Shown in pieces: positions 15,198-28,377 of a DNA stretch of 64,000 bases (position 1 is the stretch's first letter; each line of letters starts with the position of its first letter). Made by a program: the position numbers and the translations under genes. Source of the DNA: a virus; the IMG/VR virus record IMGVR_UViG_3300020205_005279, positions 1 through 64,000 of that record. One strand, given 5' to 3'. The notes under the pieces are model-generated. The model saw nothing but the letters and a program-made list of their open reading frames with translations. It was not told the origin of the DNA and searched no databases.

Positions 15198-18164
15198 ATG
15201 GGATTTTTTGAAGAGATAAGAGAACTTCGAGACGTTACTACTCGCTCCGTAGAAGTGAGTGGCGGAGTTTATTCCGATCCGTATAATGAGATTGGTACGG
15301 TGGTATCGGTATCGGATCCTAAAAAACTAGGCCGCGTAAAAGTTACCTATCAAGACGGAACAAGTAGCGATTGGATTTATGTTCTCAACGGTAGTAATAA
15401 GGGAGTGCTTAGCGCCCAATTCATTGGCTCGCCTTGCCTAATCGGGAAGGCTAACGGTAACTCTGAAGATGCTTTTGTGCTGGGGTTTTTTAATAAAAGC
15501 CCTGAGGCAGGGTTTCCGGGCGCGGCCTATCAGGTAGCCACGGTCAATCAACAAATTGATGCTTATAGGCCGGCCTCATCGCCGGGGGACCAGGGTCTAC
15601 TTTGCAACGAGGGGAATAGTGGCCGGCTCTATTTATTCGATAGTGAAAACGACCAGGTACTAGCAATTTGCATGCGGCGCGATAGCCGACAACTGGGCGA
15701 AGAGGCAACTTGGTCTTGGAAAACAATTACCCAAGGCAAACTTATTGAGAAGGGAGTTGATCCTGGGGTGCCCGAAGGCACGGCTACTAACGCAGCATAT
15801 GCCGGTAAAACGGGAATACCGCAATGCTCAAAATCCCTTGAGGGGGAAGTATTTGATTTTACCGAAGACCGCAAGTTTCGCAGTTTTCAAATTAAGTGCG
15901 GCAAGGACGAAAATGGGGACTACATATGGACCCCAGTAAGTGCTGCTCCGGTGTTTTTTCGCACGACCCTACCGCCCTGCACAGAGCGTCTTCATGGCAT
16001 GGACGCAATCCTCGACGAGGGTCTCAATTCCCAGGGGATTAAATGTTTACGGTACCAGGGCTCGATGAAATGGATAAATCCAGGCAAAAGAGAACCGATC
16101 CAATTTCACCGTCAAGACCCTCCTAAAACCAAACCTGAGTTTATTAATTCACGTAAGCCTATACCAGCTCTGGCGCAAAAAGCCGCTCCTGCTGCAGGTG
16201 ATTCTGTAGGCAATGCAACCATGGCAGTTTTGGACGAAATTGGTAAAAATATTCCGCCCACCGGCACTGATCCTGCCCTCAAAGCCGCATTAATGTCCGG
16301 TGGGGTACTCCCTCCTGCATTTAACCAGGCCAATTTTCTTTCTAATCTTGCAAAGGTTACAATTGCTAATAACTCTGGGGTAAGTATTGCAACGTTAAAT
16401 TCTTTGCTTACAAACGCTCTTAGCCAGGGAAATGTCATTGATGAGGAACTAGCAGTTGTACTTTCATCTTTGACAAGCGCTGGGGATCTTATTGCCCAAG
16501 GAATACAAAATAATACTCTAGATCGGGCTTTACAAACTGTAGGGCAAAAAGCTCTTAATCAAACACTAAGCACGATCTCTCCAGAGCTCCAGAGTGTATA
16601 CTTATCCTACGCGGCAGGCGGTGTGGTTGGGGCAATTGACTCAGTCGTCATGCTTGGTCTCCCTCAACTCCCTCCAGAGGTGGCCAAATTTGTATCTCCG
16701 ATATTAGACATTGGAACAGACTTTTTTAGAACGCAACCATCTGCTATTAATGATATACTAAATGCAGCCGTGGGGAGGGGAAGTGGACCCATTCAAGATG
16801 TAATTGGTGGACTTGTGAATGTGGTAGGCGGCCAAGGTAACATCTCCGGAAACATAGTCGGAGGCATTACTTCTGCTCTCCAAGGAGGTGGGCTGGGCGA
16901 AGTTGCAGGATTGGTAGGTAATTTTGCTGGGCTTTCAGGAATTCCGCTCCTTGGCGGCCAAGCAGGTATTCCGCAATTGGCCACTACAGCTCTAGAGCTT
17001 GTAGGACTTGGTCAACAACTAAGTGGTATATTAGGAGCTGGTGGAATAGGGCTCGATGCATTAGGAGCGCTTACCGCCCTTAATCCCGTGGCTGGAATTC
17101 TTGGCGGGCTTAAAGGGCTCGGGGGATTGTTTGGCGGCGGAGGCGGTGATTGTCCCTGTGATCCTAAATGCCGAAAAACCAAGCATTCAAAAGATTCGGA
17201 TGGAAATACTTTATTAACAGAGTGTGGTAATGTTATTGCTAACTCCGCCAGTTCATATAACCCCGAAGGGGATATGACAAAAAACAATGAAAACGTTGTT
17301 GCCGAGGTGCTTAGTCTTATCCCCACAGCGGTGGGCGAAGATTTATGTTTCCCGAACCCATTCGATCTTACCCAACTCATTAAATCGGTAAAACGACTAA
17401 ATGAGATGGCCGATCGCATCGACAGTGCTAAAAACGCCGATTGGCCAGAGCTTTGGACGGAACTAATGTACACCTTTGAGGCGGTGGAGAAGGCTTTTAA
17501 ACAAACAGATAACAACATTACAGGCGTAGAGTCAGTAGAACGAAAGCTTATTGACGCTCAACATCGCTTAATTACTAAGATGATGGACGGTAATGGTTCA
17601 TTTTTCTCTAAAGCTTTATTTAGTATTATAGATACCTCTAAGGCCGTACAAGACTTGTATAAATTTGTGCTAAAGTTAAACGCAGTAAAAAAAGGCGGTA
17701 AGGCACCTGTAGTTGTTACACCCTCATTGAAAACTGTATTTGGAAATATAGTAAAAATTGCCACTTTAAACTCCACAAGCAAAGCAGAAGCGGTTAATAT
17801 CCTTTCTAATATTGTGTTACCAGCCGACAAAGAATGGAGAAAATTAGCGCCCGGAGGAGATCTTCTCAATCTCAAGGATGTAATTTTAGGACTAATACCG
17901 GTTGACGTTCCACTCAATTTTGATAAATGTTTAACTAAGCGGAACAAAGACAAGGCTCTCAGGGATTCTCTGGAGTCTAAAATTAATTCACCGGTTTTGG
18001 GTGAACCCCTGTCTCTAGTCGAGGCAAAATTACCACAGAGCATTACCGAGGCCCTGGGAGTACCAGGTACACCCGGAACGCCTGGATCGCCATCTATTAG
18101 GGAAATCTTGGATCAAATTAAATATGACCAGGGTCGGGCGCGCGACGGCCAGGCCGATTGCTAA
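15198..18164 (+). CDS. baseplate spike (gpV/gp5-like OB fold) with a long C-terminal extension
   Basis: 'IGTVVSVSDPKKLGRVKV..SDWI' OB-fold signature, then Cys repeats, a Gly/Leu-rich region and a helical tail. Confidence 0.7.
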   Translation: MGFFEEIRELRDVTTRSVEVSGGVYSDPYNEIGTVVSVSDPKKLGRVKVTYQDGTSSDWIYVLNGSNKGVLSAQFIGSPCLIGKANGNSEDAFVLGFFNKSPEAGFPGAAYQVATVNQQIDAYRPASSPGDQGLLCNEGNSGRLYLFDSENDQVLAICMRRDSRQLGEEATWSWKTITQGKLIEKGVDPGVPEGTATNAAYAGKTGIPQCSKSLEGEVFDFTEDRKFRSFQIKCGKDENGDYIWTPVSAAPVFFRTTLPPCTERLHGMDAILDEGLNSQGIKCLRYQGSMKWINPGKREPIQFHRQDPPKTKPEFINSRKPIPALAQKAAPAAGDSVGNATMAVLDEIGKNIPPTGTDPALKAALMSGGVLPPAFNQANFLSNLAKVTIANNSGVSIATLNSLLTNALSQGNVIDEELAVVLSSLTSAGDLIAQGIQNNTLDRALQTVGQKALNQTLSTISPELQSVYLSYAAGGVVGAIDSVVMLGLPQLPPEVAKFVSPILDIGTDFFRTQPSAINDILNAAVGRGSGPIQDVIGGLVNVVGGQGNISGNIVGGITSALQGGGLGEVAGLVGNFAGLSGIPLLGGQAGIPQLATTALELVGLGQQLSGILGAGGIGLDALGALTALNPVAGILGGLKGLGGLFGGGGGDCPCDPKCRKTKHSKDSDGNTLLTECGNVIANSASSYNPEGDMTKNNENVVAEVLSLIPTAVGEDLCFPNPFDLTQLIKSVKRLNEMADRIDSAKNADWPELWTELMYTFEAVEKAFKQTDNNITGVESVERKLIDAQHRLITKMMDGNGSFFSKALFSIIDTSKAVQDLYKFVLKLNAVKKGGKAPVVVTPSLKTVFGNIVKIATLNSTSKAEAVNILSNIVLPADKEWRKLAPGGDLLNLKDVILGLIPVDVPLNFDKCLTKRNKDKALRDSLESKINSPVLGEPLSLVEAKLPQSITEALGVPGTPGTPGSPSIREILDQIKYDQGRARDGQADC

Positions 18165-20924: not shown

Positions 20925-21550
20925 CCTCGGCGACTGAGTGTAATTACTTTGTTCGTGGCGACGACGAGGCATTTCTCAACGAGGTTGTAGACCTTGTTCC
21001 TCAGTGGAAGGCCATCAAGGACCGCGGAGGGGTTCGTTATAAGATTAGGAATAAAAAGTTTCAGGGTAAGGCTGTGAGGGGAGCCGTAATGGTCACCCCT
21101 AGGTCGAAGAGTGAAATATGGTTGGGGAAGGGTAAGGTGGTAGATGCACTTTTTCCTAAAAAAGTAGAGACGCCCGTCTATGTGCAAAATAAACGCGAGG
21201 CGTTAATGGCCATGAGGCAAATCATAGATCCACAAATAAAAGCATATAGGCAAAGCGTTCTTCGCCAACTCAAAAAGAAACCGCTAAAATGCCCTATATC
21301 CCACGACTTTTTAGAAGCGACTGAGTTTCATATCGACCACAAATACCCCTTTAAGAACCTAGTTGAAGAGTGGTGTAGGGATGTGCATGTAGACTTGGAA
21401 AACTTACAAGTTTATTGCCGTGGCACTAAATGTTATATGAGAGACACAGATCTAGCAGAATCGTGGTTTGATTTTCATATGATGAATGCGCAGCTCCAGG
21501 CACTCAGCGCCGAGGAAAATCTAAAGAAGGGTTCTAAGTACTACGGTTAG
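20852..21550 (+). CDS. DCL/DUF3223-like protein with a C-terminal HNH-like domain
   Basis: 'AMRQIIDPQIKAYR..CPIS..HIDHKYPFKNL..WFDFH..LQALSAEENL'. Confidence 0.5.
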   Translation: MRRIISLQGADYGKGQFEKKWSEITSATECNYFVRGDDEAFLNEVVDLVPQWKAIKDRGGVRYKIRNKKFQGKAVRGAVMVTPRSKSEIWLGKGKVVDALFPKKVETPVYVQNKREALMAMRQIIDPQIKAYRQSVLRQLKKKPLKCPISHDFLEATEFHIDHKYPFKNLVEEWCRDVHVDLENLQVYCRGTKCYMRDTDLAESWFDFHMMNAQLQALSAEENLKKGSKYYG

Positions 21551-22239
21551 CGACGTTTGCGCCCACTGGTTTTTTTCTTCTGCGAGCTGGAATCGGTTTG
21601 GGCGGTGAAGCCCACACCAGCCATCTTAGGCTGAGACTTACCAACAAATTTTAACATTGCTAGATCATCGCTCAGATCAACATCGCCAAAGGTTAGTTCA
21701 AAAATCTCAATGGCGGCTTTGGCCATCATATCCTCGAGCCCTTGTGTGGTCTTATCGCCAGTTAACCAGGGCTTTCTTTTATCTACATTGGCCGCATAGC
21801 CCATACGATTTGCCACCTCGTAGATGCCTTGGCCCTTACGTCCGACATAATGCCCACCATATAACCTGCCCGTAATAATTCTAACACCTTCCTCCTTATA
21901 CCTTTTTTGTAAGTATTGGATTACTGCCCCGTCTGGGTTCTGTTTTTCAATATAGATTTCTAGTTCTTTGATAGCGGACTCGGCCTTGGAGATTAGTGCT
22001 TCGCCAGGTTTGCCTCTGAACTCAACATCAACGCTTGCCTCGCCTAACGCTCTGACATATTGCGAGAGATTGTACTCAACCTCCCTGGAGTATTGTTCGG
22101 CAACGTGGGCTAACATAGCCTCCCTGGCGCTCCGCATTGACTGCTCGAGGAGTTGGGATTTGGCGGTTTGGATAATGTCCTTTTTGGCCGATTGGAGCAC
22201 TGAGCCCATAATCGCTGCGGCCAGGGCCTTATAGATCAT
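21547..22239 (-). CDS. hypothetical protein, possible neck/tail-completion (HK97 gp10-like) protein
   Basis: 'ITGRLYG..EVANRMGYAANVDKRKPWL' resembles TGxL..YA..V..P. Confidence 0.4.
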   Translation of the reverse strand: MIYKALAAAIMGSVLQSAKKDIIQTAKSQLLEQSMRSAREAMLAHVAEQYSREVEYNLSQYVRALGEASVDVEFRGKPGEALISKAESAIKELEIYIEKQNPDGAVIQYLQKRYKEEGVRIITGRLYGGHYVGRKGQGIYEVANRMGYAANVDKRKPWLTGDKTTQGLEDMMAKAAIEIFELTFGDVDLSDDLAMLKFVGKSQPKMAGVGFTAQTDSSSQKKKTSGRKRR

Positions 22240-25200
22240 GGGGTTGGTTTATTGCACTTAATTTTGTTAAAATAAGACCTGGCGGCTGGAGATCGATTTC
22301 CAACTTCAAACTCTGGATTGGCTGGTACTTCAAACTCCCTCATAAAGTACTCCATGGCTTCCTCGGGAGTTTTTGCATTATTCATTTTATTTACGGTTGA
22401 TTTATATGTAGTCTGGAGTTCTCCTTTCAAAAAACTTAATTGCTGATCTAATGAGCAATTTCTTCCACACTTGTACGTAGAAGCAAGAGCATCTGCCCTA
22501 CTACCGCACCATTGAACAAGACCATACGCTGTACTTCCTAAGATTCTTGATCTTGATTCAGGGCGAGTACATCCGTTACCGGCTCTTGAAGTATTATGGA
22601 TATTAAAATTGACTCCACTTTCTTTTTCCATGTTTGCCAGAACTCCAGCAAAACCATTTTGAGTTTTTAGCCCGGAGGAATATAAGGCGTTAATTATTGC
22701 ATCTTGAGTTGGATTGCCAGTTTGGCAATTTGCGGCGGGGAAAGAGCCCTGGGTATTGGCAGGGGTGGTGGTGTCTGGGCCTTGGGCCGCGGCCTGGGAC
22801 CAGTATTGGGCCTCACCGCACAACTCCTCAGTAGAGTCTTTACCATTCTCCGTCTTCCAGTGCAAATCGCCAAGCGATCTCATATATCCATAGTAGTCCG
22901 TTGTATTTTTTAATTCCCCGGCGTTTCTCATAGAGGCCAAGTAGTTGGGGAAGGTCGGGGCTTTGATATCCCGAGTACCCCAGGCACTTCGGCCTTCCAG
23001 GTCTACGCGAAGGTCCCCGTCTCTCCACTTATATTTACACTGGGTAATAAACCAGTTCTTGAATCTACTAGGAATCCAGATGCCAGGGTCGGTGCCATTA
23101 TCATCTCCACGTGGCCCGCCATTCTCCACCCATGAGTCGTAGTCGGATATGAGTGACAAGATGGTTCGGCCAGGGATAATGCGCAGCGATCGTGGAACGC
23201 CCTTAAACCCGGTTTCAAGTGTCAGGCCTTGTGTTGCAGGTGCGGCTTGCATGTTGGGTGAGGTCTTTCCCCCACCCGACGAGGAGCGAAGCCCGGCAAT
23301 GTTTGGCGGAATAGATTGCGGTGCAAGGTGAGCAATAAGAACTTCTCCCTCGGGAGTAGATACTATAACGTGGTTACCAAATCCTCCTCCGCAACCGTCA
23401 CTTAGAGAGTTTTCCTTAGTGCATTTTGTTTCAACAACTTGCTTTACTGAGGCCCCATTAACTGCGTATACTGGTTGACCAGCTTTTTGAAATCCAAAGT
23501 CTATCCCCTTGTGGTTTCTACCGGCGCCATATCCTTGGTTTCTATCTACCGAACCCATGGGCAAATTACCAATTAAAAAGTATTTATTTGCAACGTTTGT
23601 AAGCATTGCTTCCGACCCAGCACTGGGGCCCCCAGAAAATTGAAAATGAACGTGGGGAGCAGAGGAGCGACCTGTACCACCTACCCTACCAAGAAGTATC
23701 CCTTGACTTTCACTAGATGGTTGTTGAGGCGCAGCAGTTCCTGCAGACCTTGCTTTTTCTGCAGCTATGGCTCTCATTGTTGGATCCATGAGTTGCTTGT
23801 AAAGCGCTTCCTTCTGAGCAGGAGTCCCCGAAACAAATATTTTGGTAGTGGGGGCATCCATTCTACCAACTTCGAGAATAGTGCCACCACGATTTGGGAT
23901 ACCAAGACCGTCTCTATGGTTTACGCTAAAGGCCCCGTATGAGGAGGCTAAAGCGTTATCGCTTTGCCAGATGTTTTTTCCTCCACGCGGTGGAATAACC
24001 CCACTCTTTCCCGCAACCTCGTCATTATGAATTTCAATTACTTGTTTTCCAGAAGCTACGGCTTGTTCGGTAATTTTGAATTGACTGCGCGAGTCACTTT
24101 CTGGGATATTAGATGATGGAGGGAAATAAAACTCTGTAAAATCAGAGATGCCATACGATGCGGCATTGCGTTGCGCCCACTTAACAAGTTCTACATTTAG
24201 TGCTCTTTCATTTGGAGCGCCTGAAGGGAAGTCTGCATGCCCTGCCATCAGAAGAACTTTTTTTGGCTTTTGTGTAGTGTTGGCGCTCCAATCTTTAGAG
24301 GTGGCTTTAGGCGCTGGTGGAACTACGTTGGTTGCTGACGCCGGTGCGGCCTTTGGAGCAGCGTCTTTTAACTCTTCTTCAGGCACCGCCCAATCCCACA
24401 CGATCTGGGGGTTGAGGGTAACCAACTCATTCTTAAATCCTTCGATAAAAAACCGCGTGAACTCGGGCTTTTCGGCGGTAGAGGAGCCGATCTCTTGACT
24501 AATTTCCAGGACATCATTTGCTTTAACTTTTACGTTGCTGAGCCCCGTGGTCTCTTGGCGGATTTGACGAGAGAAGCATTTTTTCGTTTCCTGTGTGTCG
24601 CAAGCCTGAAGGAAGAATTTGGTAGAGATGATTACCCTGCCATTAGCAGTGTCGGCCTCACGAACCTTACCACTCAGATAGGAAATTGCGGTGGTACCGT
24701 TGGGCGCAATTCCGAACAAATTGGCGTCTTTTAAACGTTCGTTAATTACTGTAATGCCACCACCTGCCTGTCCTGCGGCGGGTTTAGAGTCTTTCCAAGC
24801 AAATCCGGTTAGTCGTGGTGCGCCTTTAATGTGTGGAGATACTGGCTCGAAGAGTTGGGGGAAGGCAACTTTCTTTACCTTCTCCAAGGCTTTTTTGCGA
24901 CGCTCTGGAGTTATGTTTTGTACGGTATATGAGGATGCGTTGAAGGCCTCGGAAACGTACTGGTCGCCATTGTTGCGGTTTGAGCCCTGCTCAAGATTGA
25001 GCATTAAAAATGTGAGATCGGGCTGACCGTTGATTTCGTAACTTTCATAGAGGCCCTTGCCAAGATAAAATACGGAGCAACCTTGGTCGATCTCGCCCCG
25101 CGTGCACATAGAAATCTTATTGGCATACTCACGAGTGGGAAGAGTGAGAGTATTACCACCGACCGAATCAATAACTTTTTTAATTGCTTCGTCAGGAGTA

Positions 25201-25922
25201 ACTCCTTTGAAGCGGATGCTTCGGGGCAAAAGGCGTTTCTTATCGGGTTCTGAGTTTGTGTTGGCGCAAAAAGAAACAGAGTAACCCATCTCTTCGGAAA
25301 TGTCTTTAAGCACTTTTTCGATCTCAGCGCCTTCATCAAAGGCCATATTGACCAAGGATTGGTTGAAGAGCACAGAGCGGGCCTCGACGCCCCTTATAGT
25401 AACCGACGGGTACCTAGAGCCGTGGGATACCGAAAACCCATCCACTCTGAAGTAGAAGTCGGTGCCAAAAGACGTTCCGCCCACGTCGTACCATAGAGAG
25501 AGCATGAGTAAGGCAAAGTTACCCTGTGCATTGACAGGGTCGTTTTTGTCTACGTTTAGGTCTACGTACTTAACGCATTTATCTGCAATTGGATCCTGAC
25601 CCTCAGTACAGGCTGGTAGTAAAATATTATTAGATGCTGCGATGGTAGACGCTGTGTAAATGCTGGCCGCGTCGTACAGAGCAGGCCACGCCAATCCGGT
25701 TAGATACGGATCGGAGATAGTGACCTGGCATTTAGATTGGTTGAGAAAGTTTGTAGCGGCAGTGGGGGTTGTTGTGGAGTCTTGGTTGAGTTGTGAGAGT
25801 CCAGGTTCCCACTTAAGATCAACTGAGAGCTCTTGAATTTGCCGCTCATCAAATACAATAAGCTGTTCCGACCTAAATGGTCGGTAGCCTACACGAGCTC
25901 TACAGCGATAAAGACTTGACAC
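22236..25922 (-). CDS. baseplate hub (gpD/gp27-like) fused to amidase_3, M23 peptidase and phage tail lysozyme domains
   Basis: amidase 'VLLMAGH..NERALN..IEIHND..ILEVG'; M23 'PHVHF', 'HKGID' and 'GNHVIV..HL'; lysozyme 'AGVLANMEKESG..YGLVQW..QQLSFLKGEL'. Confidence 0.8.
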   Translation of the reverse strand: MSSLYRCRARVGYRPFRSEQLIVFDERQIQELSVDLKWEPGLSQLNQDSTTTPTAATNFLNQSKCQVTISDPYLTGLAWPALYDAASIYTASTIAASNNILLPACTEGQDPIADKCVKYVDLNVDKNDPVNAQGNFALLMLSLWYDVGGTSFGTDFYFRVDGFSVSHGSRYPSVTIRGVEARSVLFNQSLVNMAFDEGAEIEKVLKDISEEMGYSVSFCANTNSEPDKKRLLPRSIRFKGVTPDEAIKKVIDSVGGNTLTLPTREYANKISMCTRGEIDQGCSVFYLGKGLYESYEINGQPDLTFLMLNLEQGSNRNNGDQYVSEAFNASSYTVQNITPERRKKALEKVKKVAFPQLFEPVSPHIKGAPRLTGFAWKDSKPAAGQAGGGITVINERLKDANLFGIAPNGTTAISYLSGKVREADTANGRVIISTKFFLQACDTQETKKCFSRQIRQETTGLSNVKVKANDVLEISQEIGSSTAEKPEFTRFFIEGFKNELVTLNPQIVWDWAVPEEELKDAAPKAAPASATNVVPPAPKATSKDWSANTTQKPKKVLLMAGHADFPSGAPNERALNVELVKWAQRNAASYGISDFTEFYFPPSSNIPESDSRSQFKITEQAVASGKQVIEIHNDEVAGKSGVIPPRGGKNIWQSDNALASSYGAFSVNHRDGLGIPNRGGTILEVGRMDAPTTKIFVSGTPAQKEALYKQLMDPTMRAIAAEKARSAGTAAPQQPSSESQGILLGRVGGTGRSSAPHVHFQFSGGPSAGSEAMLTNVANKYFLIGNLPMGSVDRNQGYGAGRNHKGIDFGFQKAGQPVYAVNGASVKQVVETKCTKENSLSDGCGGGFGNHVIVSTPEGEVLIAHLAPQSIPPNIAGLRSSSGGGKTSPNMQAAPATQGLTLETGFKGVPRSLRIIPGRTILSLISDYDSWVENGGPRGDDNGTDPGIWIPSRFKNWFITQCKYKWRDGDLRVDLEGRSAWGTRDIKAPTFPNYLASMRNAGELKNTTDYYGYMRSLGDLHWKTENGKDSTEELCGEAQYWSQAAAQGPDTTTPANTQGSFPAANCQTGNPTQDAIINALYSSGLKTQNGFAGVLANMEKESGVNFNIHNTSRAGNGCTRPESRSRILGSTAYGLVQWCGSRADALASTYKCGRNCSLDQQLSFLKGELQTTYKSTVNKMNNAKTPEEAMEYFMREFEVPANPEFEVGNRSPAARSYFNKIKCNKPTP

Positions 25923-25933
25923 ATTCTACTCGA

Positions 25934-26755
25934 TTAGTCAGTAATAGAAGTTACAGTGGCAGTTGCCGGAGTTGTCTGAGTGGCTCCGGTCTGAGGAGCA
26001 ACTGTGGAGATATTAAGCTGAACAACCTGGCCATTGATAAATCCTTCGCCAGGGACGGTGATAAGAGTGATCGAATCGATTTCGCCACCAATAATTTCCG
26101 CGGTAACTTCTGCCACGGCGTAATTGGAGGGATTAGTAACAGCAGTTGAGGAGACTACAAATACCACGTCTTCGGCCGTATCGTCCGTACCATCCACGGT
26201 AAATCCAGCGCCAGGGGTGGTGAGTGTTAGGGTGGCAATAGCCCCGCTAATTGGAGTTTGTTCAGCCACTCTAGCGATCTCTTTAGCCAACTCATAGGTA
26301 GCAACCATAAAATTAAAGTCTTCTCCGTCGCCCTCTGCAATACCAACAAACCTGGTGGTATTTACAAGAAGAGCATTGAGTATAGTAGCATCTGCAGAAT
26401 ATACGTCACCGTTATTAGCAAGAGCTTCTGTGATTAGTTCAAAGGCACCATAGGCCGCTCTTTTGGCCTCAAACCCCATTGAAGGACCACAACCAATAAA
26501 TGTCTCTACAAATTCTTCACGAATACTAGGGGTATTGCCGGGTTGATTGTAGCTGAAGATAGTGGGCCAGGATAGCGCGAATAAAAGAAAAGTTTGGAGT
26601 TTAATTTTATACTCAAATTGAATGCCAATAAGACGACGCAATTGACCCGCAGTAACCTCGAGTAGAAGAGGCGCACCAACTTTAGGACTAACAACACTTT
26701 CTAGATTGTCGGTAAGTAGTCTATACCCGAATAATTGCTGAGTTGTAATTGTCAT
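25934..26755 (-). CDS. hypothetical virion protein with a Thr-rich beta C-terminal domain
   Basis: 'LTLTTPGAGF' and 'ITLITVPGEGF' repeats typical of cyanophage structural proteins; ATGA overlap with the upstream gene. Confidence 0.6.
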   Translation of the reverse strand: MTITTQQLFGYRLLTDNLESVVSPKVGAPLLLEVTAGQLRRLIGIQFEYKIKLQTFLLFALSWPTIFSYNQPGNTPSIREEFVETFIGCGPSMGFEAKRAAYGAFELITEALANNGDVYSADATILNALLVNTTRFVGIAEGDGEDFNFMVATYELAKEIARVAEQTPISGAIATLTLTTPGAGFTVDGTDDTAEDVVFVVSSTAVTNPSNYAVAEVTAEIIGGEIDSITLITVPGEGFINGQVVQLNISTVAPQTGATQTTPATATVTSITD

Positions 26756-27699
26756 TTTAAAAATTTAGGATGGGTAATCTCCGGGACTCGGAGTATAGAC
26801 TCCCCTAAAGGAGTCAATTCGGCATGTCTTTTAATCTCTGCAAAAAGAGACTTGGAGGCATCCGAAGTTATTTCTACAATAACTTTAAACTCCTTTGAAT
26901 AAGGGGTAAGAGGAGAAACCAATTCTGAAAAACAGGCTTCGATGTTCTTTGAGACAAAATAGGCGTGAATAATACCATGCATAGGCCTGGTGTCCGAACG
27001 AAAAGCCGATGAAAACCTCTCATTGTCTGGATTGGTGCATAGGATTCCGTGTTCATTGCATATCGAAAATAGGGCCATGTGACAGGCCTCATGAACAAGT
27101 TGTTCAAAAAATTTAGGAAAAGTACCCAGGACTAGAGGGTTAAGTACAGTGGCTCCCCATAAAAAGAAATATGTAGCCCCACCAAAACTCAAGTTTTTTT
27201 GTTTTGAAAGATGGCCGGGGGAGGTAATGATAATTACACGGAGCATCTCTTCTACCAATTTGTGGTATTGAGGCGAATGAGAAGAAAGAAGATCTAGACT
27301 TTTATGTAAAGAATTTCGGCAGTATTTAATAACGCCCTCAGAGGGTTGTTCTAAGTCCAGAGGAAACGCAGCCTCAGTGGATAAAGTTTGAAAAATATTG
27401 TCCCACTCATAAGGGAAAAAAGCATTGGCGCCCCACTCCAAGATGGTAGGATGAGCCGGGCGTTTAAGTCTTATAGAGTCCGAAAGAAAGGAAGTAGTTT
27501 TATTTACAGAATTTTCGTCCTCGTTGATTAATGCCTCAACCAAGTTTTTATATGCTAAAAAGGTTAGAGGATGTGGAACGTCCGATAAAAAGTACTTATT
27601 TGCTTCTGTAGAAAAGATCTGATTTAAAGAATTATTTAAGTCATCAATTGTTAAAAGGTTGGCCTTTTGCCATCTATTAGCGCCCTGTGTAGTTACCAT
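26752..27699 (-). CDS. aKG-HExxH family (HEXXH-motif) peptide-modifying enzyme
   Basis: 'SFGGATYFFLWGATVLN', 'LVHEACH' and 'ERFSSAFRSDTRPMHGIIHA'. Confidence 0.8.
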   Translation of the reverse strand: MVTTQGANRWQKANLLTIDDLNNSLNQIFSTEANKYFLSDVPHPLTFLAYKNLVEALINEDENSVNKTTSFLSDSIRLKRPAHPTILEWGANAFFPYEWDNIFQTLSTEAAFPLDLEQPSEGVIKYCRNSLHKSLDLLSSHSPQYHKLVEEMLRVIIITSPGHLSKQKNLSFGGATYFFLWGATVLNPLVLGTFPKFFEQLVHEACHMALFSICNEHGILCTNPDNERFSSAFRSDTRPMHGIIHAYFVSKNIEACFSELVSPLTPYSKEFKVIVEITSDASKSLFAEIKRHAELTPLGESILRVPEITHPKFLK

Positions 27700-27734
27700 A
27701 GTAATTAATTTAATTTCAAAATACTAAGAAGTAA

Positions 27735-28313
27735 TTACGATGCATTTAAACATAATAGAAGGTTTGGTGGTTCACGGTATCCTGGATCAATGATTTTATG
27801 TGGAAGTAGAGAACGGTATTTTAAGTAGTCTTCCATATAGTCGTAGTAGGCGAGGTGCTCAGCTTCCCTCATTAGGAGTTGGTTGCGAATAAAATACGGT
27901 GTGGCGGCAGGGTATTGTTCTTTGATCTCTACAACATGATGGGGGCGACTCCATTCCCAGCTCCTCTTGACAAGAAAAACATGAACCTTAGAGGCCCTAG
28001 AGGAAAAATATGACTCGGCGGCAAAGGCCCATTCTTCTGAAATATTTACATGACGCCGAAACTTATCATAAAAGGTAACTTCTGAAAAACCACGATCACA
28101 AATTACCACCTCGGGCATTGTATCTAACACCGCATCCAAGGGCTGGGTGTACTGCTCAATGGGGGAGTTATGATGGGGTTGGGGCCCCGCAAAGTGGAGA
28201 ACAACAGCGTCTGTACCTTTGTCCGTAAGTTGGTGCAGGGTATTAGAGACGATGGTAGATTTGCCAACTCTATCGGCTCCTAGAACCACAATAATGGCGG
28301 GTTTTGTTGACAT
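27735..28313 (-). CDS. P-loop nucleotide monophosphate kinase (thymidylate/dNMP kinase-like)
   Basis: 'IVVLGADRVGKST' and 'VICDR'; ATG 28313 preferred given the promoter position (alternative 28337). Confidence 0.7.
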   Translation of the reverse strand: MSTKPAIIVVLGADRVGKSTIVSNTLHQLTDKGTDAVVLHFAGPQPHHNSPIEQYTQPLDAVLDTMPEVVICDRGFSEVTFYDKFRRHVNISEEWAFAAESYFSSRASKVHVFLVKRSWEWSRPHHVVEIKEQYPAATPYFIRNQLLMREAEHLAYYDYMEDYLKYRSLLPHKIIDPGYREPPNLLLCLNAS

Positions 28314-28348
28314 AAACAACTTAGGTGGGGTGGGCATTGATTAGTAGT

Positions 28349-28377
28349 ATTATATCACGGCCTTCGCCTCATGTCAA
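28349..28377 (-). promoter_or_regulatory. consensus sigma70 promoter TTGACA-N17-TATAAT with extended TG
   Basis: minus strand TTGACA tgaggcgaaggccgtga TATAAT. Confidence 0.85.

Follow-up and report, generated by a model that had tools for sequence, protein, structure and literature searches.

The DNA analysed here (the window) comprises the first 64 kb of the linear IMG/VR virus record IMGVR_UViG_3300020205_005279, which is 89,050 bp long and ~55% complete according to CheckV. Its minus strand carries, at 26752..27699, an open reading frame (ORF) that starts with ATG, ends with TGA and encodes a stand-alone, 315-aa hydroxylase of the aKG-HExxH type (P0001), identified by TIGR04267, AlphaFold2 (AF2) modelling and Foldseek; below it is called the HExxH gene. 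It is followed on the same strand by g273 (25934..26755), the gene of a 273-aa virion structural protein (P0170), which consists of an N-terminal extension, a helical domain and a C-terminal Ig-like beta domain (tblastn, BFVD and AF2). The stop codon of the HExxH gene and the start codon of g273 overlap in the tetranucleotide ATGA (26752..26755, minus strand), as read directly from the sequence (...TTAAAATGACAATT...). An earlier, sequence-only reading of this DNA had proposed the ORF, three motifs within it and the overlap with the 273-aa gene; all of these are present and real, on the minus strand. We propose, with a probability of roughly 0.5, that the extension of g273 is a substrate of P0001.

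The match of P0001 to the NCBIfam profile TIGR04267 (mod_HExxH; IPR026337, "aKG-HExxH-type peptide beta-hydroxylase") reached 46.6 bits (E 3.6e-12), above the curated cut-off of 40, and spanned residues 132-303 of the protein and positions 2-174 of the 177 profile positions. In a six-frame search with the same profile the HExxH gene scored 47.7 bits, and P0001 had no match in Pfam or PHROGs. The conserved elements are SFGGATYFFLWGA (residues 171-183), HEACH (residues 203-207, nt 27079-27093) and SSAFRSDTRPMHGIIHA (residues 230-246), the last of which contains the third His (H245, nt 26965-26967). An exhaustive search with a profile of the P0001 family retrieved 2245 representatives at E <= 1e-3 and, among the best matches listed, most are stand-alone proteins of 300-350 aa. 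Ten positions were invariant in an alignment of 56 relatives (G174, H203, E204, H207, R234, R238, G242, H245, V249 and G299). P0001 has R234, D236, R238, P239, G242 and H245, i.e. the complete R..D.RP..G..H(A) block, which was aligned to REDLRPPSGLLHA of ChlH (8s5f); the roles of the conserved His and Arg as metal and 2-oxoglutarate ligands are taken from the literature on family members. The family profile also matched the ChlH sequence 8s5f_A (E 4.8e-13) and SjiH (22nu; E 5.7e-11), in which the same block was aligned as well.

The AF2 model of P0001 was of high confidence (predicted local distance difference test score (pLDDT) 95.1, predicted template modelling score (pTM) 0.93). Its top match in the PDB was the HExxH domain of ChlBH (8s5f; E 9e-9, template modelling (TM) score 0.61), followed by SjiH (22ob; E 4e-5), and these two were the only significant ones, while the Atlas structures matched were aKG-HExxH clusters (TM 0.82-0.84). 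Since the score of the hidden Markov model exceeds the cut-off, the ligands are conserved and the fold is ChlBH-like, the family assignment holds, and P0001 is very probably a genuine aKG-HExxH enzyme, in line with the full family signature recognized earlier. A hydrolytic metalloprotease of the zincin type, trimming off the extension like a propeptide and performing no oxygen chemistry, would also account for the HExxH motif and the zincin-like core of P0001. Hydrolytic cleavage was reported for PflC on truncated substrates (PMC12636437), and a cut at the conserved G-x site of the extension (described below) would leave a protein about as long as those of the relatives. This explanation is nevertheless decidedly improbable, as the residues characteristic of 2-oxoglutarate enzymes, a third ligand and two Arg, are invariant and the zincin peptidases, whose appearance as best structural match would have spoken against the sequence-only reading, gave only insignificant matches to the model (all E > 0.3, best 0.36).

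For g273, tblastn searches of GenBank retrieved only gp112 of phage S-TIM5 and its counterparts in S-TIM54, S-TIM61 and S-TIM66 (38% identity), named "virion structural protein", a label that is a GenBank annotation only. H6WFX5, which is gp112 of S-TIM5, was also the best structural match in BFVD (E 2e-19), so that the virion-like character ascribed to the 273-aa gene from its sequence is upheld by homology. The AF2 model of the protein had a pLDDT of 82, with residues 1-33 below 50, and no significant match in the PDB (Foldseek). Matches obtained with VIA-align (Z up to 12.3) were generic helical bundles within the noise range of helical proteins and were discarded.

Alignment with homologues revealed that, of codons 1-38 of g273 (26642..26755, minus strand), ~30 constitute a lineage-specific extension, which is predicted to be disordered and contains the motif S-P-K-V-G-A-P (nt 26669-26689). 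All 33 homologues retrieved with their flanks lack it; these proteins (239-251 aa) begin at about residue 31-33 of g273, as MA[NT]ILNxGL.R.LGI.FE.K. A whole-protein search listed 50 homologues, of which exactly six carry the extension (P0170, P0171, P0172, P0177, P0194 and P0189) and 44 do not, several of the latter sharing 70-76% identity with g273. When residues 1-40 were used as the query, the extension matched only P0170 and P0171. These two proteins are 88% identical overall and differ at one position within residues 1-25. Between lineages the extensions are 30-53% identical and the reading frame is open in all six; S..[S/G]-P-K-[V/I]-G-x-P is unchanged in 6/6, and five of them also have L-[FL]-G-[YFH]-x-L. 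The motif [S/G]PK[V/I]GxP occurs once in the six frames of the 89-kb record and is absent from the 13 cellular loci examined. An origin of the extension by duplication of the native N-terminus of g273 was considered and found to be unsupported (376 of 2000 shuffles reached the score).

For comparison of the locus, 32 related IMG/VR loci were fetched with g273 as a probe, and S-TIM5 was added. As far as each locus reaches, the gene order is g790, g1174, phoH and g113, then g200, g273, g1228 and g230 in series, and then g232 and the sigma factor gene. The HExxH enzyme had no tblastn match at 1e-5 in any of the 32 loci. The distance between the stop codon of g200 and the start codon of g273 was 30-62 nt in the 14 loci measured, and in S-TIM5, where gp113, gp112 and gp111 stand in series, it is 30 nt. 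A search with the family profile found no homologue in the whole S-TIM5 genome or in four long relatives, which include one that is 100% complete. The GC content of the HExxH gene is 39.6%, compared with 45.1% for the genome and 45-49% for the flanking genes. Since its flanks are adjacent in the 32 loci and in S-TIM5, all of which lack it, the HExxH gene is, on this comparison, a lineage-specific, low-GC insert. Its upstream edge is an AT-rich spacer of 35 nt between g200 and the HExxH gene (27700..27734, minus strand, from the ORF positions). An independent assembly (Logan) bridges g1228, g273 and the HExxH gene. The Logan contigs of the sequencing run containing the stretch, which may be the source of this DNA, break at 27714-27732, within this spacer (depths 8.2 and 6.4), which could reflect low complexity or population variants at the edge of the insert; the junction of g200 with the HExxH gene is bridged in the window's own assembly and the break is no sign of its absence.

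The enzyme gene is rare among phages. P0001 had no tblastn match among 50,697 phage records, pattern scans of IMG/VR viral contigs with three family queries (including P0007 and P0004) yielded no phage homologue, and a metagenome scan gave four short contigs with distant relatives only. Such rarity would suit a decaying or functionless passenger gene. This is very improbable, however, as the ORF is uninterrupted and encodes every family-invariant residue, the fold is confidently predicted and the gene was retained across lineages diverged to 41-50% identity.

These lineages became visible in the protein collection, where the phage-type HExxH gene occurs in six variants, the enzymes of different lineages being 41-50% identical. 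Apart from the pair in the window, five extended g273 proteins could each be assigned an HExxH partner with the same longest contig: P0171 with P0154 (2501 bp), P0172 with P0002 (54751 bp), P0177 with P0007 (37278 bp), P0194 with P0003 (3199 bp) and P0189 with P0010 (10042 bp). The genes of P0171/P0154 and P0194/P0003 must be neighbours, because each pair requires together ~1.8 kb on a contig of 2.5 kb and 3.2 kb, respectively. Every traceable partner of a phage-type enzyme carries the extension, which is the outcome of the survey of phage homologues for linkage to the 25934-26755 gene that had been suggested earlier. In a tree of the g273 body, five extension bearers form one well-supported clade and P0194 is a long branch nearby. 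An approximately unbiased test did not reject the grouping of all six into one clade (p 0.61), the constrained tree being slightly better. We therefore base a functional link on the joint retention of both elements through deep divergence, on the conservation of the motif within a disordered segment and on the overlapping frames. The description of the enzyme as an "orphan" does not fit this picture, in which a candidate substrate is fused to the product of the very next gene. The related suggestion that the enzyme modifies the phage's own virion protein gains comparative support, in that the extension is found only where the enzyme is found; the chemistry is what we infer.

Enzymes of this family bind Fe(II) at the HExxH motif, use 2-oxoglutarate and act on peptides encoded in their own clusters, in which His, Asp, Phe, Gln, Asn and Pro are targets of beta-hydroxylation (PMC12636437; PMC13060819). 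PflC and PosC, guided by an N-terminal leader, alpha-hydroxylate a small residue, which leads to a cut in the backbone (PMC12636437; PMC13060819). By analogy, an Fe(II)/2-oxoglutarate HExxH oxygenase would have entered one freshwater sublineage of TIM5-like myoviruses together with the ~30-residue extension of g273. Enzyme and g273 would be made from the ATGA-coupled frames, and the former would bind the disordered extension as g273 is being synthesized, and oxidize a residue in or beside [S/G]-P-K-[V/I]-G-x-P. Beta-hydroxylation, e.g. of Pro or Lys, would be the simplest and most likely reaction. Alternatively, alpha-hydroxylation at the small G-x residues might result in a backbone cut, as in PflC and PosC; cleavage at G-x would remove ~27 residues and bring g273 to about the size of its relatives. 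Taken as parts of one explanation, to which we give even odds as a whole, P0001 would be catalytically active as an Fe(II)/2-oxoglutarate oxygenase, the extension would be translated, and the two would form a conserved two-part module. A little more tentatively, this might represent the logic of RiPPs (peptides made on ribosomes and modified after translation) applied to a virion: a peptide resembling a leader and core would be fused to a structural protein and oxidized by a co-translated enzyme, with either hydroxylation or a cleavage that releases an amidated peptide.

The ancestry of the enzyme was approached with a tree, in which a clade with full support unites the eight phage-type sequences. 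Nearest to it are P0011 and P0012, the latter from a Synechococcaceae metagenome-assembled genome (MAG; NCBI), with support values of 87-88 and a long-branch warning; a host-derived ancestry of the phage enzyme fits this tree weakly. Few cellular genomes have a stand-alone HExxH relative (6 of the 401 Pseudomonadota genomes sampled), and the genome scan gave two alphaproteobacterial MAG loci. In the cellular loci inspected, the HExxH genes lie beside those of AMP-binding enzymes (loci L006, L046 and L047), of an ATP-grasp-like enzyme (L045) and of RTX, Big_13 or Hint_2 proteins (L007, L006, L002 and L003). No radical S-adenosylmethionine (rSAM) gene was found among the scanned neighbours of the cellular loci inspected. 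The sequence-only reading had placed the family normally beside an rSAM/SPASM maturase; this is true of the fused FxsB/YhhB/ChlB type and does not extend to the stand-alone subfamily. The idea of a "repurposed RiPP maturase" is therefore an assumption on ancestry, as the rSAM context applies to only part of the family and the relatives listed are mostly stand-alone.

In the alphaproteobacterial loci the stand-alone HExxH genes adjoin genes of large or Hint_2 proteins (L002:790-1566, L003:566-1477, L007:3031-7233 and L006:3935-7240), these being Hint_2-domain proteins, a 1400-aa RTX/PATR protein and a 1101-aa Big_13 protein. The two Hint_2 proteins, encoded directly downstream of the enzyme gene, have in common a conserved stretch of ~30 N-terminal residues (ILVNEDKLLG.R.IDRPIGVK[IV]G). 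A shared N-terminal segment on the product following the HExxH gene is reminiscent, by analogy, of the phage arrangement.

Several points weigh against the extension as substrate. The known substrates of family members are peptides of roughly <=100 residues and not a structural protein of 273 aa, and no RNA run is listed as containing the stretch. The five pairs outside the window were matched by equal length of the longest contig, mostly by their sources and in 4/5 cases by contig count, the DNA itself not being seen. The pairing of enzyme and extension may have had one origin, in which case a single gain could explain their co-occurrence, and the functional link is not based on repeated independent association. 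Moreover, the insertion itself might have created the extension as a by-product at its junction, and no g273 homologue can be paired with three of the phage-clade enzymes (P0004, P0006 and P0008). In another explanation, the enzyme acts on a host protein or peptide, or on a phage product encoded elsewhere, and the extension is either a neutral remnant of the junction or a docking peptide by which the enzyme is taken into the virion and delivered to the host. Cyanophages carry many host-like oxygenases, the cellular tree neighbours P0011 and P0012 would fit an auxiliary gene of host origin within the limits of support given above, and the gene for the substrate could sit in the missing part of the record. 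We nevertheless regard this explanation as unlikely. A neutral remnant would not be expected to hold an invariant motif (6 of 7 residues) while the enzymes fall to 41-50% identity, the extension is present in every traceable partner, and the enzyme gene lies inside a run of virion genes and not in the usual islands of auxiliary genes; the docking variant likewise requires binding between enzyme and extension.

The phage itself was classified from the genes of the record, which encode a Mu-like portal, a tail fibre, virion proteins, baseplate proteins J, I and V, the small subunit of ribonucleotide reductase, PhoH and a sigma factor. Over its entire length the portal shares 62% identity with those of S-TIM5, S-TIM54, S-TIM61 and S-TIM66, and synteny with gp118-gp104 of S-TIM5 is present. 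By these comparisons the phage, which comes from lake water, is distantly related to the TIM5-like cyanomyoviruses (Aurunvirus and kin) as a freshwater form, and the identities do not fit membership of the same genus. The only public run containing the stretch is a freshwater metagenome (DNA). The gene psbA was not found in the 89 kb of this incomplete record.

The minus-strand run that includes the HExxH gene and g273 begins with g200 (27735..28337). This conserved gene encodes a P-loop protein resembling kinases, which matched phrog_761 (thymidylate kinase) weakly (E 4e-7). It is kept over its full length in the relatives, always directly before g273 in the TIM5-like group, and its homologue in S-TIM5 (gp113) is annotated as "hypothetical". 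Downstream of g273 lies g1228 (22236..25922, minus strand), which encodes a virion-associated cell-wall lysin of 1228 aa (Pfam and PHROGs). It matched Phage_lysozyme2 (E 4e-23) and Peptidase_M23 (29.8 bits) as well as phrog_30576 (baseplate) and phrog_9570, and its homologue in S-TIM5 is gp111, a virion structural protein. In g1228 an M23 stretch (residues ~740-763) is paired with a C-terminal tail lysozyme domain (residues 1073-1220), so the protein has two cell-wall hydrolase activities, as predicted from these domains. Of the term "baseplate hub-lysin" used for this gene previously, the lysin and baseplate parts agree with the lysozyme, M23 and PHROG matches; "hub" is doubtful, since a separate gene of the gpV-type hub is present at 15198-18164. 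The last gene of the run, g230 (21547..22239, minus strand), overlaps with its start the stop codon of g1228 (ORF list) and is conserved and syntenic in 28/32 related loci, the other four ending before it.

A putative promoter of the sigma-70 type (TTGACA-17-TATAAT with TG, i.e. an extended -10 element; 28349..28377, minus strand) was predicted by a consensus scan (12/12 matches). It is located 12 nt before g200 and heads the whole minus-strand run. The sequence TGATATAAT occurs at the promoter site in 12 of 14 related phages, with GTAGAAT or GATAGAAT in the other two. A host-type promoter thus appears to head a run that includes virion genes, and the late-promoter motif GTTTAAAG was not seen before the HExxH gene in the sequence read. 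By eye, a short GC-rich hairpin (e.g. CCCAC-TTCG-GTGGG) was noticed between g200 and g273 in four relatives (L008, L010, L017 and L027), in which it may act as a terminator dividing an early gene from the late virion genes. There is no such hairpin in the window, where the HExxH gene starts 35 AT-rich bases after g200.

The neighbours of the HExxH gene are a kinase-like gene and genes of virion proteins and PhoH, with no class-defining RiPP maturase (such as an rSAM/SPASM enzyme, a multinuclear non-haem iron-dependent oxidase (MNIO) or YcaO), protease or exporter. No short precursor ORF is located between g200, the HExxH gene and g273 (spacers of 35 nt and -4 nt), the 273-aa protein bearing a leader-like extension in its stead, and no rSAM domain (PF04055) was detected in the 89-kb, ~55% complete record, as the sequence-only reading had anticipated for the neighbourhood. 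With neither a separate precursor gene nor a maturase nearby, the locus does not qualify as a classical RiPP cluster. Such a pathway, with its precursor and an rSAM or other maturase encoded in the ~45% of the genome that the record lacks and the HExxH gene providing a tailoring step, would be compatible with a linear, partial record and with the longer contig (116,551 bp) recorded in the protein collection. It is improbable, however: besides the missing PF04055 match, relatives with complete or near-complete genomes have no enzyme and no need for it, the clade is a stand-alone one whose inspected cellular members have no rSAM gene among their scanned neighbours, and the position and coupling of the HExxH gene link it to g273.

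The aKG-HExxH enzymes were recognized in 2024 and, to our knowledge, are so far known only from bacterial peptide natural-product clusters; no literature linking them to phages was found in the library that could be searched. The enzyme family is known; new are its occurrence in a virus and its association with an extension of a structural protein. The 315-aa enzyme and a ~40-residue peptide with a 7-residue conserved motif constitute a compact, testable candidate pair. If the proposal is true, P0001 would be the first enzyme of its family to be encoded by a virus, and also the first whose substrate is a structural protein. Viruses and protein substrates would be added to the range of the family, and virion proteins would be covalently modified or matured in a new way. 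The pair could then also provide a recognition tag and an enzyme for site-specific hydroxylation or cleavage of proteins. More generally, lineage-specific extensions on neighbouring genes may offer a way to find the substrates of "orphan" phage oxygenases.

Among phages, one of the closest known systems is gp113-gp112-gp111 of S-TIM5 (Aurunvirus), which has the same gene order and homologous proteins (gp112 being 38% identical, compared with 62% for the portal). In contrast to the locus in the window, S-TIM5 and related marine phages lack both the HExxH gene and an extension on gp112. Canonical 2-oxoglutarate-Fe(II) oxygenases of cyanophages and other phages (JmjC/prolyl 4-hydroxylase type) sit beside repeat-bearing fibre proteins. 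The locus resembles them in that an oxygenase gene adjoins the gene of a virion protein with a special low-complexity or disordered segment. It differs in that their double-stranded beta-helix fold and metal site are unrelated to the zincin-like HExxH fold, and in that their candidate substrates are long repeats, whereas the candidate of the phage HExxH enzyme is a single short N-terminal motif.

Within the enzyme family, the HExxH domain of ChlBH/ChlH (8s5f) shares with P0001 the fold as well as the HExxH motif and the R..D.RP..G..HA block. According to Morishita et al. (Nat Chem 2024; cited in PMC12636437 and PMC13060819), ChlBH is a fusion with an rSAM cyclophane synthase, and the residues that it hydroxylates are His and Asp in a short, pre-cyclized RiPP precursor. 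P0001, in contrast, is stand-alone, ~15% identical to it, encoded in an 89-kb record with no rSAM and followed by a virion protein. PesO (nitrilobacillin; PMC13060819) and BpmH (biphenomycin-like; PMC12257519) are stand-alone aKG-HExxH hydroxylases, like P0001, and differ from it as enzymes of bacterial clusters that have MNIO partners, act on short peptides and have no viral context. PesO hydroxylates Pro (PMC13060819), and the conserved prolines of the extension are therefore plausible sites.

A functional parallel is provided by PflC and PosC (Ouyang et al., PMC12636437), which are also stand-alone and act on a substrate of their own from the same cluster, recognized via an N-terminal leader. 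Their substrates are NHLP-type precursors of ~90 aa, encoded in a Pseudomonas cluster together with GNAT, MNIO-nitroreductase and transporter genes (PMC12636437). In the phage, by comparison, the candidate substrate is an extension of a 273-aa structural protein, with no further tailoring or export genes. The backbone cut that PflC and PosC introduce at a small residue is a possible model for a cleavage within K-[VI]-G-x-P of g273.

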